A stretch of 64,000 bases of DNA from an uncultured bacterium. GTDB lineage: Bacteria > Desulfobacterota_D > UBA1144 > Nemesobacterales > UBA2774. Positions 37,201-43,200 of the stretch are shown here, piece by piece (positions within the stretch are counted from its first letter, which is position 1; every line of letters begins with the position of its first letter). Position numbers: made by a program. Location of the stretch: assembly GCA_963705505.1 (NCBI GenBank), contig CAVPJU010000010.1:640001-704000 (forward strand), given 5' to 3'.

Positions 37201-40200
37201 CCCGTCACGACCGTTCCCCTTCCAGAGATAGTGAACACGTCCTCTATCGCCATCAAAAACGGCTTGTCCATCTCCCTCACGGGCACAGGTATGTACTCGT
37301 CTATCGCTTTCATCAAATCCATTATCTGGTTCATCGCCGCCGGGTCTTCCTCAAGCGCCTTTAACGCGCTCACCCTCACCACCGGCACATCGTCCCCGGG
37401 AAACCCGTACTGGCTCAATAAATCCCTTACCTCAAGCTCCACAAGGTCCAATAGCTCTTCGTCGTCCATCATGTCCACTTTATTAAGCGCTACCACTATG
37501 TAGGGCACCCCTACCTGCCTCGCAAGCAGTATGTGCTCCCTCGTCTGGGGCATAGGACCGTCCGGTGCGCTCACTACCAATATCGCCCCGTCCATCTGCG
37601 CCGCTCCCGTTATCATGTTCTTTACGTAGTCCGCGTGCCCGGGACAGTCAACGTGCGCATAGTGCCTCTTCGGCGTCTCGTACTCCACGTGTGCTATGTT
37701 TATCGTTATGCCCCTCTCCCTCTCCTCAGGAGCCTTGTCTATCTCCGAGAACTCCACGTACTTCGCACCCCCGGACTTGCTCAATACCTTCGTTATCGCC
37801 GCCGTCAGCGTCGTCTTCCCGTGGTCCACGTGACCTATCGTCCCTATGTTTAAATGCGGCTTCCCCCGCGCAAATTTCTCCTTAGACATCTCCTGTTACT
37901 ACCTCCTTAATGGATTGAAGAACAAGTTTTCATGCACCACATGGAGCCCACGAGCGGATTCGAACCGCTGACCTCATCCTTACCAAGGATGTGCTCTGCC
38001 GACTGAGCTACGTGGGCAAAGAAAGCCATGAGCGGGAGACGGGATTCGAACCCGCGACCCTCAGCTTGGAAGGCTGATGCTCTAGCCAACTGAGCTACTC
38101 CCGCTTTAATAGCATTGCAGCCTGCCTTGAGCTTATTCATTGTTAAAATAAACCGATAAAATTTATTCCCGTCATCAATGCACTGGGGAGGGCAGGATTC
38201 GAACCTACGTAGGCTTGCACCGGCAGATTTACAGTCTGCTGCTTTTGACCGCTCAGCCACCTCCCCTCCGATAAAATTGCATACAACTCTCTCTAATTGC
38301 AACATTTTTCCGATGGAGCTGGCGAAGGGATTTGAACCCCCGGCCTGCTGATTACAAATCAGCTGCTCTTCCACTGAGCTACGCCAGCTTATAAAGAATC
38401 GATAATTTCTATGGATTCTCCATTAATATGAAATTAGATAGAATTCACCCGAATATATGGAATCACGGTATTGTAACACAATAAACCGAATACTGTCAAG
38501 GTAAAGAATTGATTTTACATAAATTAATAGAGGGACACCATAATTTCCGCCTCTGCAACTATTGAGCCTCCCACACTGGCTTCCCCGGTGAAGATTATGA
38601 TCTTCGAGCGTCTCTTCAATATCCTCACATCCAACTGCATAATGTCGTTCGGATATACTGCTTTCCTGAAACGCACTTTTTCAAGCCCCGCAAGGTAAGC
38701 CCCCGATTGTCCTTTGGATTTTAGTTCCTCGGTGAACGATAAGTTATAAAGGACTCCGCCCGCCTGAGCCAGCGCCTCGACTATAATCACGCCGGGAACA
38801 ATCGGATTTCCGGGGAAATGGCCTCTGAAAAACACCTCGCCGGGACTGAATTTCTTGACCGCAAGGATTCTCGACCCGTATTCCAGCTCCAGAACCTCAT
38901 CGACGAAGAGAAACGGCTCCCTGTGAGGAATACAATTCTTGATAGACTCTCTATCAATCAAAATTACATTGCTCCCGTGAGTACGAATGCCGTTAGACAT
39001 CACTACTTGGCGTCATAAGCCTGTATAACCTGTTGAGTTATATCTATTGCCGGGATTGCGTATATGACACCGCCCTCGGTCTTTTCAATTATGAGCGTAT
39101 AGCCGCCGGACTTGCCGATTGACTGAAGTATTCCATCGAGATCCTTCAATATTTTTTCCAAAAGCTCGTAATCCCTCTTCTGGAGCTCATCCCTGAAATC
39201 GGCTCTCGACCTCTGAAGCTCTTTGTCGAGCTGGTCGATCTGCTCGGCCTTTTGTTTCCTAGTTACTTCGTTCATCACGGGGCCGTTTTGAATAAACTCA
39301 TTTTTCATCGCTTCGAGCTGGGAGCTCTTACTCTCAATGATCTGCTGCTTTTGTTTGAACTCGGCTTCGAATGCGGACTTTGCAGCCTTACCCGCTTTCG
39401 AATTCGCTATAACCATCTGTAAATCTATAATCCCTATCTTGTTTTCCTGCGAATAGGAAAAAACGGGAGTCAGAAGCAACAAACCAAATACAAGTAAAAA
39501 TAATCTCATTTCTTTACCTCCTCGAATGTTAAAATAATGTTCCTACAGTAAACTGAATTTCATAAGAATCTTCTCCGGGCAGCTTGTTCCCGAGCGGGAA
39601 CCCGACTTCGAGTCTGAGCGGTCCCAGCGGCGACACCCACCTTATACCGAAACCCACGTCCTTCCTCAGATCGACAGGGTTTAAAGTCACATCCTGCCCG
39701 TCGTTAAACGCATCTCCCATATCGAAGAAAACCGCCCCCCTCAAGCCGACCGACGGCATCAAAGGAAAGATGTAGTCAACCGAGAACAGCAGCTCCTGAA
39801 CGCCGCCGATTATAACGAAACTGCCGTCGGCGGAGGGAACCCTGGGGCCCACCCTTCTGAAGCCGTAGCCTCTCAGAGAATTCGGCCCTCCGAGGAAGAA
39901 CCTCTCTCCCACGACGAGGTTGCTCCCGTTATTTATGAAATCGATAATTCCGTAAGTACCTCTCACGGTCAATACCGTACTGAGCCACAGAGGAAACCAT
40001 TGCCTCGATGATACAGTATATTTAATAAATTCCGTATTACCACCCAGCGGCCCCCCGGCAAATTCGACATTCGTTTCGCTCAGGTTTCCGGCGCTGGGAT
40101 CGAGGAGATTATTTCTCGAATCCCACACAAAACCCAAACCGACGCTGCTGATGTTTTCTTTCGACCTGGTAATAATAAGTCTTGCGTTCTCGTCTATATC

Positions 40201-43200
40201 TCCGATTTTCACATGTTCATATCTGTAGGTGGCATTGCCGCTCAGGTATCTCCACAGCAGCCTTCCGAAGGTCAAACTCCCGCCGTACGAATTCCGGTCA
40301 AAATCCCTGTACTGCCTGTCCGTCCTGAACAGGAGGGCATCGAGAGTCCAGTTTGTATCTAACAGGTGAGGGTCCTGATATTGCACATAAAAGAGCTGCG
40401 TTACTCCGCCTATCTGGGCGTTTAACGTGAGCCTCTTCCCGTATCCGAAAAGATTTGCTTCCTGGATCTGACCCGCGAAAATAAACGTCTCGACGGAGCT
40501 GAAACCACCGGCGATGCTGAAAAACCCTGTGGGCTTCTCCTCGACCTTTACCTTAACATCCAGCTGATCCGTGGTGCCCGGCACACGCTCCGTGGCGACT
40601 TCCACGTTATTCTCAAAAAACCCGAGCCTCGTAACCCTAGACTTAATAGCCTGAACCTCGGTCGCGTTAAAGAGCTGATCTTCCTCTATGGCTATTTCCC
40701 TTCTTATAACCTTATCCCTCGTCCTGACATTGCCTACGATATCTATTTGCCGCACATAAACTTCGGGCCCCTTTTCAATTTTGAACCGAACATCGACCGT
40801 CAGCTTCTGCCTGTCGAGCTTGAATCCGGGCTCCACGTTAGCGAACGCATAACCCTTGTCGCCGTAGAATGTCGTAAGCCCCGATATATCCGCAGCGAGG
40901 AAACTGCCTCTGAATATCTCCCCGCTTTTAAGCTTAAGGAGCGCCCTGAGCTGATCCTCCGGCACTACTAAATCCCCAACGAACGCAATCTGATCGACCT
41001 TGTACTGGTTGCCCTCGTCTATTTTAAACGTAATAATATAACCCTTTTTTTTATCGTCATATACTATTTCAGGCTTGCTGACCTTTACGTCTAGGAACCC
41101 GTTATCGATATAAGTAGTCCTTATCCTCTCCGTATCGTTGTCGACCTCCTGAGGGTTGTAGAGGCCCTTTTTCGAAAGAAAGGAAAACATCCCTTTGGGT
41201 TTCGAGTATAAGCCCTTTTTTATTATTTTCGTCTTCAGTTTTTCATTGCCGACGAAGACGACTTGCTTTATGTAGGCCTTCTTGCCCTCCTTTATGTCGA
41301 ATGTAACGCTTACAGTCCCTTCCCCCTCGGGCTCGATGCTGTAATCCACTACAGTTCCCACAAGACCGCTCTGGGCATAGAGGGCGCTTATGGCTTCCTG
41401 GCTTTTCTTCACTTTACTGAGGTCGATAATCCGGCCTTCCTTAACGTCGGTGACCTCGAGTATCTTATCGCTCTTTATGTCTTTATTCCCCCTGATTCTC
41501 AGGTCAGAGACAACGGGCTTTTCCTTAACCTTATAAACCAGGATTATCCCTTCGGGTGTCTTTTCGGTCTCGGCTGTCACATCTTCGAAGAATCCCAGCT
41601 TGTAAAGCCTCTTGATATCGTCCCTCACGGTCGCGGTCGACAGGGGCTCCCCTACCTTTGAGGAGATATTCAGCCCTATGAGCTCCGTTTCCACACGAAG
41701 GTTGCCCTCTATTTTTATCTGGACCACATTGACCTGTCCCTGGACCTGTCCCTGATTCCCGGGTGTTTGCGCGCCTGCCCCGTTTTCAACCGCCCCGCTC
41801 TCCGGTTTCTTGACTGCGTCCGACGCGGAGGGTGCATTATCAGCCGCGTCCTGTCCGAAAGATATCTCGCAGCAAATGGAAGTCAGAAGGAGCAGCAGCG
41901 CAGCCGCAAAAGCGGCTCTACATACCCGGAAGTTAATTGACATCGACGATTTTCCCATCGGAAAGCCTTATTCTCCTATGCAGCCGCCTGGCAATTTCCT
42001 GATTGTGCGTAACCAATACCGATGTAATTCCATGTTCCTCGTTGAGCATTAAAAACAAGTCGAGAATAGATGCCCCCGTATCCAGGTCCAGGTTCCCGGT
42101 CGGCTCATCGGCCAGGATCACCTTGGGTTTCAGAACCACCGCCCTCGCGATCGCGACCCTTTGCTGCTCTCCCCCCGACAACTCCCCCGGCCGGTGTTCG
42201 AGCCTGTGCTCCAGGCCCACCTTCGTAAGGACATCGCTCGCCGTCTCTTTCGCCTGGCCGGAGCCGATACCGTTAATAAGACACGGCATCATCACGTTCT
42301 CCAAGGCGCTGAACTCGGGCAGGAGATAGTGAAACTGGAACACGAAACCTATCTCCCTGTTCCTGAAGGCCGCAAGCTCGCTGTCGTTCTGTTTGAATAT
42401 GTTGACGTCCCCGTAACAGACCTCTCCGTCCGTCGGCTTTTCCAGCGTTCCCAGTATATGTAAAAGAGTACTTTTCCCCGACCCTGAAACACCGACGACA
42501 CCGAGTGTTTCACCGCCGGATATGTCAAGATCAATACCCTTTAGAGCCTCTACTTTGCCACCCTTTGTTTCAAACACCTTCCATAAACCTCGTACTCGAA
42601 TCTCCATTCCTCACTCATACCTCAGAGCCTCAATCGGATCTTTTCGAGACGCTTGAAATGACGGATACAGAGTTGCAATAAAACATATCAATATGCTGCA
42701 AAACGCGATCATTAAAAAATAAAACGGTTCAATTTTAACTGGAAACTCAGAAATAGGATAGACATTATTATCAAATGGAATCAGTTTCCTTATCGTTTCG
42801 CTCGTTTTGAGCATATAACAGATGCCGAAACCCGAGAGGCTCCCCAGTAAAGTCCCGACGATTCCGATTATCATCCCGTCTATAACAAAAATCTTCAGTA
42901 TGCCCTGTTTGGTCGCCCCCATAGCGCGGAGTATCGCGATGTCTTTCCCCTTCTCCATAACGACCATGGTCAGCGCGCTTACAATATCGAGCGCCGCGAC
43001 GAGGATAATCAGACCGAGAAAGATGGCTATCGCTACCCTCTCCAGTCTGAGCGCCTTGAAAAGGCTCTTATTGACCTCTTCCCAGTTCCTCGAGTAATAA
43101 GGGAATCCGAGTATCGACGCAAGCTCACTCCCGATCCTCTTCGCATCGTAAATATCCCTGATTTTCACCTCCACCCCGGAGACCTCGCCGTTCATGTCGA

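Follow-up and report, generated by a model that had tools for sequence, protein, structure and literature searches.

Candidatus Dadabacteria appear to build an outer membrane without lipopolysaccharide and without the Lpt bridge

Introduction

Diderm bacteria without lipopolysaccharide (LPS) are already known; the lineage described here differs from the well-studied ones in that it is also devoid of the Lpt machinery. Borrelia burgdorferi and other LPS-free spirochaetes are, like Candidatus Dadabacteria, Gracilicute diderms with BamA, TamB and Lol and without a lipid A pathway, as passages of PMC10353723, PMC13721041 and PMC11784454 describe for the spirochaetes. According to the same passages, Borrelia keeps six of the seven Lpt proteins, LptD appears to be essential, and the cargo is proposed to consist of glycolipids. 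Dadabacteria, in contrast, lack LptA/F/G throughout the phylum and LptC/D/E where these were tested. The LPS-free diderm Terrabacteria Thermus, Deinococcus and Thermotoga likewise combine an Omp85 outer membrane with the absence of lpx genes, at phylum or near-phylum scale (passages in PMC10160955 and PMC5007114), but all three were positive as controls for LptF/G and LptD_N, for which Dadabacteria gave 0/120. Dadabacteria also differ from them in being Gracilicutes that possess Lol and lipoproteins with OmpA domains and that branch among LPS-making lineages.

Sphingomonas species (a passage in PMC13721041) and Sorangium cellulosum So ce56 (going by the title of a reference in PMC11324152) are free of LPS and have a sphingolipid outer leaflet. 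Like Dadabacteria, they are free-living, proteobacteria-related diderms, and some Dadabacteria have Spt-type and OlsB/OlsA-type genes. Their losses are confined to a genus or strain and come with a defined substitute, whereas the loss in Dadabacteria extends across 120 genomes with no general substitute gene. Genes for Kdo2-lipid A are also missing from the Anaplasmataceae Wolbachia, Ehrlichia and Anaplasma (a passage in PMC3087551). These bacteria are obligate intracellular, whereas the Dadabacteria genome studied here has a mur cluster and amino-acid biosynthesis, and a far smaller relative has MurJ and penicillin-binding proteins. Nor are the Anaplasmataceae known to possess Lpt.

The window, by which we mean the whole 64,000-nucleotide stretch analysed, comes from a Ca. 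Dadabacteria genome of 2.9 Mb (G000). Phylum-wide counts refer to the 120 genomes of the GTDB phylum, of which 23 consist of one contig and 94 reach a completeness of 90% or more; this "phylum" is a GTDB rank for one class, and in the NCBI taxonomy Ca. Dadabacteria form a class within Thermodesulfobacteriota. The genomes were all assembled from uncultured bacteria, and the phylum-wide profile searches use a loose first-look filter. The searches for LpxK, LptC, KdsA/B and LpxA/D cover G000 and G111, the latter a Dadabacteria genome of about 1 Mb that is 92% complete; family f9 comprises 19 genomes of about this size. The literature searched held neither a micrograph of a member nor an analysis of its lipids, so the second membrane and its composition are inferred from genes. 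The same literature yielded no prior report of an LPS- and Lpt-free outer membrane in Dadabacteria.

Results

The bamA-skp-fabZ locus

All features of the locus lie on the reverse strand of the window. The conserved block opens with lysS (43918–45381; Pfam tRNA-synt_2), and an ORF equal in size precedes bamA at this place in other Dadabacteria as well as in Geobacteraceae and Geopsychrobacteraceae loci. It is followed by a lipoprotein-release permease of the lolC/E type (LolF; 42611–43921; NCBIfam TIGR02212, 381 bits, cut-off 362), by the adjoining lolD ATPase (41933–42607; top NCBIfam match TIGR02211, 274 bits, under the cut-off of 308), and by bamA, which encodes five POTRA domains and an Omp85 barrel (39529–41958; Pfam; TIGR03303, 634 bits, cut-off 297). 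The preliminary description had let bamA start at 41943, which is the second ATG, the actual start being 41958; its coordinates for the chaperone gene skp (39003–39509; Pfam OmpH) and for fabZ, the last gene of the operon (38524–39000; NF000582, 148 bits, cut-off 113), are correct. The TAG stop of skp is separated by two nucleotides (39001–39002) from the ATG of fabZ, at the position where the nearest outgroups have lpxD (about 1 kb), and tblastn gave no match to LpxD, LpxA or LpxB in window positions 36000–44000. The claim that skp abuts fabZ without lpxD, and that neither lpxA nor lpxB follows, thus holds, and all 21 informative relatives agree in this lysS-lolC-lolD-bamA-skp-fabZ arrangement.

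The 135-nt gap after fabZ contains a sigma-70-type promoter-like site (38470–38499), which matches the consensus at 11/12 positions with an extended -10 (TG), is a consensus match only, and faces the tRNA-tuf operon. As had been described, tRNA genes come after fabZ: tRNA-Thr(TGT), tRNA-Tyr, tRNA-Gly and tRNA-Thr(GGT) (37942–38388; ARAGORN), then tuf (EF-Tu; 36705–37889; from the ORF list, the tuf ORF of L020 being confirmed by Pfam). The same tRNA array lies 3' of fabZ in 20 of 21 relatives scanned, and tuf is the first gene of the tuf-secE-nusG-rpl-rpoB block, which has come to adjoin the bamA operon.

The lysS-lolC-lolD-bamA-skp...fabZ order is common to Dadabacteria and to the Desulfuromonadia-type locus of L032 (Geopsychrobacteraceae) and L038 (Geobacteraceae), which are among the nearest BamA relatives found. 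There, however, lpxD lies between skp and fabZ and lpxA comes after, and in L032 lpxA is followed by lpxB, an MsbA-type ABC transporter and waaA. In the BamA tree, which covers one gene and 40 rows, the 18 Dadabacteria (UFBoot 100) are joined (97) with L032, L038 and L049, all three of which carry skp-lpxD-fabZ-lpxA. The locus alone proves little: of 29 outgroup bamA loci, only 9 have lpxD at this position, and LptA and LptF/G are still present in a Desulfobulbus genome whose bamA locus lacks lpxD. The case for LPS loss is carried by the genome-wide searches. G000 retains relics, namely a degenerate KdsC homologue, GmhA, HldE and one GT9, which together with the BamA tree point to one ancient loss. 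That the lpx genes were excised from this locus, as first proposed, is a plausible reading of the synteny, the relics and the single-gene tree.

Absence of lipid A, Kdo and Lpt genes

Phylum-wide family searches found LpxB in 0/120 genomes, extending an earlier count of 0 of 5, and WaaA in 0/120 over the cut-off, with one sub-threshold match. The Pfam model for LptF/G gave 0/120, with 7 of 14 controls positive including Thermus, Deinococcus and Thermotoga, and LptD_N (LptA and the N-terminus of LptD) gave 0/120 with 6 of 14 controls; both were found in all five deltaproteobacterial control genomes. LptD, LpxL and LptE were each absent from the four Dadabacteria searched and present in the one control; for LptD, the earlier count had been 0 of 5. 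LpxC had been reported in 0 of 120 genomes. We found a single match (1/120) on a 2,171-base contig of genome G119 and rejected it as a contaminant, since the LpxA of this contig clusters at 90% with Ca. Scalindua proteins; the count changes and the absence stands.

Local searches of G000 and G111 with hmmsearch --max and deltaproteobacterial LptF/G, LptA, LptC and LptD profiles yielded nothing better than E 0.02 (leave-one-out sensitivity of the LptA/C/D profiles, E <= 1e-10), and LpxA/D profiles matched only other hexapeptide proteins such as GlmU, with at most 49 bits. KdsA/B/D and LpxK were not found in either genome. The best match to KdsA was a DAHP synthase, and the best matches to LptB were other ABC ATPases at about 30-35%. 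A screen for the 3+3 transmembrane pattern, which recovered five control proteins, turned up nothing in G000 and, in G111, nothing but an RseP-like protease. Five neighbourhoods are emptied: rpoN is without upstream kdsC-lptC-lptA-lptB, pyrG without kdsB/kdsA, folC and argS without lptD, and leuS without lptE. The housekeeping genes flanking these sites match strongly (pyrG 819, argS 536 and rpoN 295 bits), and Dadabacteria proteins are not fast-evolving elsewhere. The lpx and lpt part of the original claim is confirmed, while "no Kdo genes" was slightly too strong in view of the degenerate KdsC homologue.

Retained envelope machinery and lipid carriers

Omp85 is present in 119 of 120 genomes, including all 94 high-quality ones and 18 of 19 in family f9; this recount replaces an earlier 106 of 119 relatives. 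In G000, family models confirm BamA, TamA, two copies of TamB, Skp, LolA/C/D, TolB (with a score near the cut-off), CpoB, MlaE/D and a secretin, so that most of the outer-membrane machines first listed are borne out by family, while BamD is assigned from its 25% match to a protein with a YfiO domain in G111. CpoB is accompanied by two OmpA-domain lipoproteins, and TonB-dependent receptors and porins occur alongside the secretin. Phospholipid enzymes are present as well (CDP-alcohol transferases, Psd, PgpA, CdsA and PlsC-type). G111 has intact BamA, BamD, Skp, a SurA-like protein, a TonB-dependent receptor with TonB/ExbD, two porin families, Lgt/Lsp/Lnt and LolC/D. Queries from G000, which are distant (25-45% identity), found no TamB, AsmA-like protein, Pal, TolB, LolA or secretin in G111, and the LolA query found nothing in genome G029.

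TamB occurs in 97 of 120 genomes and in none of the 19 of family f9; YhdP/YdbH-like proteins are found in G000, and MlaD in 5/5. AsmA-like proteins have been proposed as bulk phospholipid bridges, and the MCE systems of E. coli carry lipid inward (passages in PMC10345924), so that an outward use of MCE is an assumption. The only lipid carrier found in G111 is an MCE system with a long MlaD; because the other machines gave no match in this genome, one mechanism does not cover all families. In 18 of the 19 TamB-less small genomes the operon reads X-mlaE-mlaF-mlaD, where X is an unnamed single-sheet beta-meander protein with about 20 hydrophobic turns along one edge. In a comparison meant to reveal any likeness to the beta-taco or repeating beta-groove of lipid bridges (LptA/C, AsmA-like proteins), its best fold match is the TCP domain of CPAP (VIA Z 9.3, rmsd 12.7, 161 aligned), followed by MORN and OspA single-layer sheets; an LptC chain reaches Z 5.5, and Foldseek TM is <0.2. 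All 36 genomes belonging to genus g26 are without protein X, and a Geobacteraceae genome that bears LPS has it.

Discussion

At the gene level, lpx, kds and lpt are absent from Dadabacteria, whereas Bam, beta-barrel proteins, phospholipid synthesis, TamB/AsmA-like bridges and MCE are present. The original suggestion, an LPS-free outer membrane in the group as a whole, is supported at this level by five phylum-wide searches with working controls, by the 23 single-contig genomes and by unfiltered HMMs in two genomes. The most unusual point, underplayed in the preliminary description, is the loss of the Lpt bridge.

We favour, with moderate confidence, a single loss of the lpx, Kdo and Lpt genes, after which the outer membrane would be built from glycerophospholipid without an LptD-type translocon and covered by a coat of glycan and protein. 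The ancestor of Ca. Dadabacteria would have been an LPS diderm of the deltaproteobacterial assemblage. Its genes of the Raetz (lpx), Kdo (kdsA/B/D, waaA) and Lpt (lptA-G) systems would have gone a single time, ahead of the radiation of the group, with BamA, Skp, a SurA-like protein, LolCD, TamA and peptidoglycan synthesis retained. In most families, lipid might be delivered via TamB-TamA and YhdP/YdbH-like bridges, or alternatively by an MCE ABC system with a long MlaD as in G111, and would get to the outer leaflet without an LptD-type translocon, both leaflets being probably mainly glycerophospholipid. Surface glycans and proteins could take over the barrier and shielding role of LPS, with ceramide-type and ornithine lipids as lineage-specific or phosphate-starvation additions rather than a general replacement.

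A tentative alternative is that LPS and Lpt are gone and the outer leaflet consists of an undescribed, lineage-wide glycolipid made by core GT4 glycosyltransferases and delivered by a non-Lpt route, be it MCE with protein X, TamB-TamA or a DUF3943 barrel-like protein. The core GT4 next to der hints at such a lipid: it occurs as a single copy in 111 of 120 genomes, with all 32 genera represented (41-79% identity), falls in no NCBIfam family at cut-off and has cyanobacterial Alr3699 as its nearest solved relative (E 5e-29). A second GT4 occurs in all four Dadabacteria tested and not in control G120, directly upstream of a gene for a secreted DUF3943 protein in four of six genomes examined, and the X operon of the small genomes would fit as well. 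Conservation of this kind in 1-Mb genomes tells against the favoured reading, as it suits a dedicated glycolipid no less than a protein glycan. However, a lipid acceptor of the GT4 is putative, and enzymes of this type also serve the synthesis of protein glycans, of thiols and of storage sugars. Protein X, moreover, has the distribution described above; the third GT4, which is linked to a Wzx-type flippase, has a patchy distribution (ortholog in one of four further Dadabacteria); and no lipid A-type acyltransferase was found (LpxL 0/4). We are doubtful about the fuller proposal that Dadabacteria are widespread, non-intracellular, Lpt-less diderms with an undescribed glycolipid made by one or two lineage-wide GT4 enzymes and an undescribed route, their 1-Mb members using a single MCE system with long MlaD and protein X; if so, this would be the simplest outer-membrane lipid supply line known.

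Replacement of LPS by ceramides, ornithine lipids, sterols or hopanoids, as in Sphingomonas or Sorangium, is already unlikely as a phylum-wide account. G000 does encode a PilZ-aminotransferase-GNAT fusion, putatively of Spt type, and an olsB-olsA-like pair, and a passage in PMC8237579 reports steroid genes in "Dadabacteria". Spt-type proteins, however, score high in only 37 of 120 genomes (none in families f6 and f9 or genus g26), the near-universal paralogue being BioF in a bioB-bioA-bioF operon; strong OlsB matches occur in 28, the pair in G111 adjoining genes that resemble a phosphate-starvation lipid-remodelling island, and squalene-hopene/oxidosqualene cyclase (PF13243) in 0/120 (control 2 of 14), so that none of the known substitutes extends through the phylum. 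A Dxr match places G000 on the MEP route, unlike the organisms of that passage, and Dadabacteria lack any counterpart of the second LptC/F/G copies proposed to move sphingolipids in Caulobacter (passage in PMC11324152).

It is very improbable that the smallest members, of about 1 Mb, have a degenerate or lost outer membrane with a vestigial BamA: the missing TamB in family f9 and the missing Pal, TolB, LolA, AsmA-like and secretin matches in G111 speak for it, but the queries were distant, 18 of 19 genomes keep Omp85, and G111, at 92% completeness, has its assembly factors, receptor, porins and lipoprotein enzymes intact. Least credible of all are Lpx/Lpt genes that are too divergent or unassembled, for although the assemblies are uncultured, the first-look filter is loose and both LptC and LptE are difficult to recognise from one phylum to another (passage in PMC10353723), completeness is high, the LptF/G model finds even Thermotoga and Deinococcus, other Dadabacteria proteins are not fast-evolving, five neighbourhoods are emptied, and the unfiltered searches and transmembrane screen of G000 and G111 gave nothing beyond the RseP-like protease of G111.

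Under the favoured loss of LPS and Lpt, a lineage of 120 genomes standing among LPS makers has dropped both and kept Bam. Dadabacteria thus provide a test case, set by nature, for the question whether cells can make an outer membrane when they have no outer-leaflet translocon. Few candidate genes can be named: TamB-TamA, a single MCE operon together with its unnamed partner, and one core glycosyltransferase. Gracilicutes are held, in a passage of bioRxiv 2021.05.31.446380, never to have lost the outer membrane and mostly to keep LPS, and given this view Dadabacteria bear on the diderm-to-monoderm question. Their cells would be predicted to be endotoxin-free, insensitive to polymyxin and closed to LPS-binding phages. 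Some Dadabacteria live in animal hosts such as sponges, and for these host-living members the three predicted properties would matter.

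Results

We found that, on the minus strand of the window, lysS, lolC/E, lolD, bamA, skp and fabZ are followed by four tRNA genes and tuf, with the skp stop codon (TAG) lying 2 nt before the fabZ start at 39000 (-), and with a promoter-like site directed at the tRNA-tuf operon within the 135 nt downstream of fabZ. The preliminary description had placed skp directly before fabZ, without lpxD and with no lpxA or lpxB behind, and this arrangement holds beyond the window: among 24 Dadabacteria-type bamA loci, three end too early to be informative, and the 21 that extend beyond skp all show skp-fabZ adjacency (spacing at most about 135 nt) and no match to LpxD, LpxA or LpxB. 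An ORF of 253-259 aa located 3' of fabZ in four relatives has the length of LpxA, yet it encodes a LarB-like AIR-carboxylase protein, whose gene is inserted there in one subgroup (loci L014, L015, L024 and L025). One of these, L024, is labelled Ignavibacteriales, but its gene order and its BamA, which falls within the Dadabacteria clade, are those of Dadabacteria. The outgroups carry lpxD at the bamA-skp-fabZ site in 9 of 29 loci; none was found in the available DNA of the other 20, in several cases because the contig ends. A Desulfobulbus genome has neither skp nor lpxD beside bamA, yet encodes LptA and LptF/G. The locus is thus rearranged often, and the lpxD gap alone is no evidence of loss.

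The genome under study (G000; 2.88 Mb, 10 contigs, completeness 93.6%) encodes a BamA whose closest relatives, at 60-83% identity, come from entries labelled Ca. Dadabacteria or unclassified Thermodesulfobacteriota/Deltaproteobacteria. By NCBI rank, Ca. Dadabacteria is a class of Thermodesulfobacteriota; the GTDB name of the phylum is Desulfobacterota_D. This GTDB phylum comprised 120 genomes in 9 families and 32 genera (most distant members marked 'same class'), 94 of them at least 90% complete and 23 in single contigs. The phylum search returned LpxB in 0/120 (controls 6/14, four of them over cut-off), LptF/G in 0/120 (controls 7/14), LptD_N, the family covering LptA and the LptD N-terminus, in 0/120 (controls 6/14), and WaaA over cut-off in 0/120, with one sub-threshold match (controls 3/14). 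LptD, LpxL and LptE were each missing from 4/4 Dadabacteria and present in the one control, and both LptD_N and LptF/G were found in 5/5 deltaproteobacterial genomes. The earlier statement that LpxB and LptD are lacking is borne out by these counts. Its figure of no LpxC in 120 genomes has to be corrected to one (controls 4/14), and the absence itself stands: the match covers 44 residues at one end of a 2,171-base contig (G119:C175, L001), followed by lpxA and an oxidoreductase gene, and the LpxA groups at the 90% level with proteins of Ca. Scalindua, which identifies the contig as a Scalindua contaminant and not as a genuine Dadabacteria lpxC locus. The genome in question, G119, is also the only one of the 120 without an Omp85 match.

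Since the genome search filters candidates, the test was repeated locally on the ORFs of G000 and of G111, a 1.01-Mb genome covered almost completely in 54 stretches, at whose edges genes are cut. With deltaproteobacterial profiles of LptF/G, LptA, LptC and LptD (--max), no hit in either genome fell below E 0.02; leave-one-out sensitivity for LptA/C/D was E 1e-10 to 1e-88, and the LptF/G profile, likewise negative, was built from 10 rows, one being an adjacent non-Lpt membrane protein. LpxA/D profiles (leave-one-out E at most 1e-77) matched solely other hexapeptide proteins, at no more than 49 bits. Local single-sequence --max searches with LpxB, LpxC, LpxK, LpxL, KdsB, KdsD, WaaA and LptE yielded nothing or weak paralogues (GT4, CBS domains), and the top match of KdsA was DAHP synthase. 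For LpxK, LptC, KdsA/B and LpxA/D, absence refers to G000 and G111. Beyond the bamA site, four neighbourhoods are emptied in G000: the region upstream of rpoN lacks kdsC-lptC-lptA-lptB, which four outgroup loci carry, and the Kdo and Lpt genes are gone from kdsB-pyrG-kdsA, folC-lptD-argS and leuS-lptE-holA. Two genes of this assembly, folC (C10:296999-298289) and bioA (C6:196333-197692), are each read as two ORFs; these apparent frameshifts are possibly assembly errors. Taken for the group, absence of LPS and Lpt appears almost certain.

A second membrane very probably exists. Omp85 was detected in 119/120 genomes, with two copies in most. G000 encodes TamA, two TamB, YhdP-like and YdbH-like proteins, LolA, TolB, CpoB with two OmpA-domain lipoproteins, three MlaD, TonB-dependent receptors, porins and a secretin. 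An AsmA/YdbH-like protein at C6:20886-25318 (L110) is present as two ORFs of 498 and 774 aa, a split gene or frameshift, followed by a lipoprotein that by inspection resembles YnbE/YdbL. In G111, where a Pfam scan covered 157 of 1,062 ORFs and those with ambiguous bases were excluded, we found BamA, BamD, Skp, a SurA-like protein, a TonB-dependent receptor, porins, Lgt/Lsp/Lnt, LolC/D, MurJ and PBPs; G000 queries for TamB, AsmA-like proteins, Pal, TolB, LolA and secretin had no match there. TamB occurs in 97/120 genomes overall, in 35/36 of one genus (g26) and in 0/19 of the family of genomes of about 1 Mb that includes G111 (f9, G101-G119), whose members with BamA and without TamB are candidates for a minimal outer-membrane toolkit.

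An operon of alr, a gene for a secreted protein (here protein X), mlaE, mlaF and a long mlaD is conserved in G000 (C10:4590-9850, L129), G029 (L133), G103 (L131), G107 (L132) and G111 (L130). Protein X measures 498 aa with a signal peptide in G000 and 460-500 aa across genomes. It was found in 76/120 genomes, including 18/19 of the TamB-less family and 0/36 of genus g26, and in one of five LPS-bearing controls (Geobacteraceae, G121, L137), there too before mlaE-mlaD. X had no sequence match in Pfam, NCBIfam or PDB. Its AlphaFold2 model (110 rows, pLDDT 87.6, pTM 0.70) shows about 46 short strands, and a structural search returned no clear fold match, the closest being single-layer sheets that carry no functional hint; nothing resembling LptA or AsmA was conspicuous, although this leaves room for such a fold. 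Every second turn bears a conserved hydrophobic motif around proline, about 20 such turns in all, so that the sheet has one hydrophobic edge, by which X may insert into a membrane. Predicted complexes of X with four MlaD C-terminal parts scored 0.34, 0.24 and 0.25 (mark 0.32).

Ancestry and relics of the LPS pathway

In a BamA tree of 40 rows and 745 columns, from which 8 Dadabacteria-type and 7 outgroup loci were excluded as short or redundant, Dadabacteria form a clade (UFBoot 100) joined at 97 with L032 (Geopsychrobacteraceae), L038 (Geobacteraceae) and L049, within a deltaproteobacterial clade supported at 99. Despite its Rickettsiales label, L049 has a BamA that clusters with Dadabacteria and Geobacteraceae, apart from other Rickettsiales. 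All three neighbours carry skp-lpxD-fabZ-lpxA, and core lpx genes have been reported in 26 of 30 phyla and as vertically inherited (PMC5007114). From this one gene tree and synteny, a single basal loss would be the simplest account for the group. A KdsC homologue in G000 (C1:82216-82713, L064; 34% identity to the KdsC of L058), in which the N-terminal DxD motif reads NAE, probably survives as a remnant or pseudo-enzyme of the Kdo pathway. G000 also retains dispersed genes for HldE (C8:133514-134977), GmhA (C10:737595-738206) and one GT9 (C6:614959-616089; found in 2/5 genomes searched); their retention without Kdo-lipid A implies that ADP-heptose needs another acceptor. None of these four proteins was found intact in G111.

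Discussion

LPS and Lpt genes are absent from these genomes, which encode Bam, enzymes of phospholipid synthesis and lipid carriers other than Lpt, and the joint loss of LPS and Lpt across the lineage is real and well supported. We favour, with modest confidence, an outer membrane that would consist mainly of glycerophospholipid, would be supplied with lipid by TamB/AsmA-like bridges and MCE systems, and might be shielded by glycans and proteins.

The main rival to this phospholipid membrane is an outer leaflet of a lineage-wide glycolipid, which we consider rather unlikely. It would draw on two core glycosyltransferases. A single-copy GT4 adjoining der (G000:C10:313023-314288, L210) occurs in 111/120 genomes, 32/32 genera and 90/94 high-quality genomes; it had no family at cut-off, and its position within about 1.5-2.5 kb of tamB in g26, convergent, is probably due to der. 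A second GT4 beside hisS (G000:C3:71444-73768, L211) was present in 4/4 further Dadabacteria, split in G067, and was not found in control G120; in 4/6 genomes a gene for a secreted DUF3943 protein follows. The G000 copy has 364 aa vs 456 in G111, with similarity ending near residue 284, and looks like a frameshift or truncation.

None of the known LPS substitutes is general across the phylum. The PilZ-Spt-type-GNAT fusion present in G000, or its Spt-type part, scored high in 37/120 genomes; an aminotransferase in 118/120 at first suggested a universal Spt and proved to be BioF in G000. Ornithine lipids are rejected as a general substitute because their genes are patchy (OlsB-type matches of at least 51 bits in 28/120). 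An olsB-olsA-like pair with a GT4 lies at G000:C6:630105-635500 and at G111:C4:261-7840 (L185), where, by inspection, it adjoins phosphoesterase-, polyphosphate kinase- and exopolyphosphatase-like genes, surroundings that resemble a phosphate-starvation lipid-remodelling island. A trpF-linked GT4 with a Wzx flippase is too patchy, and sterols (after PMC8237579) fail with triterpene cyclase in 0/120. Clusters of multi-pass GT-C/PMT-like and polyprenol-sugar-type GT2 genes in G000 (C6:210397-220527, L214) and G111 (L182-L184) suggest that proteins or lipids are extensively glycosylated in the periplasm.

Known LPS-free diderms include Borrelia and Sphingomonas (PMC13721041), Thermotoga and Deinococcus-Thermus (PMC10160955), and the Anaplasmataceae (PMC3087551). 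Lpt is kept by Borrelia, Thermus and Thermotoga (PMC10353723), and such retention is, according to a review, the likely way in which LPS-free cells fill their outer leaflet (PMC11784454). Dadabacteria, in contrast to these three, lack Lpt as well as LPS. The obligate intracellular Anaplasmataceae probably lack Lpt too, and Sorangium is reportedly a further LPS-free diderm. The main text of the principal Dadabacteria paper (PMC8115339) does not contain the terms LPS, lipopolysaccharide, membrane or Gram, that of a diderm survey (bioRxiv 2021.05.31.446380), whose figures or supplements may include the group, does not contain 'Dada', and titles and abstract openings on Dadabacteria/Nemesobacterales and on diderms or Lpt state no loss of either; priority is uncertain.

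Dadabacteria thus represent a variant of the LPS-free diderm in which Lpt is gone along with LPS, and the core GT4 enzymes and the X-mlaE-mlaF-mlaD operon provide two new leads.
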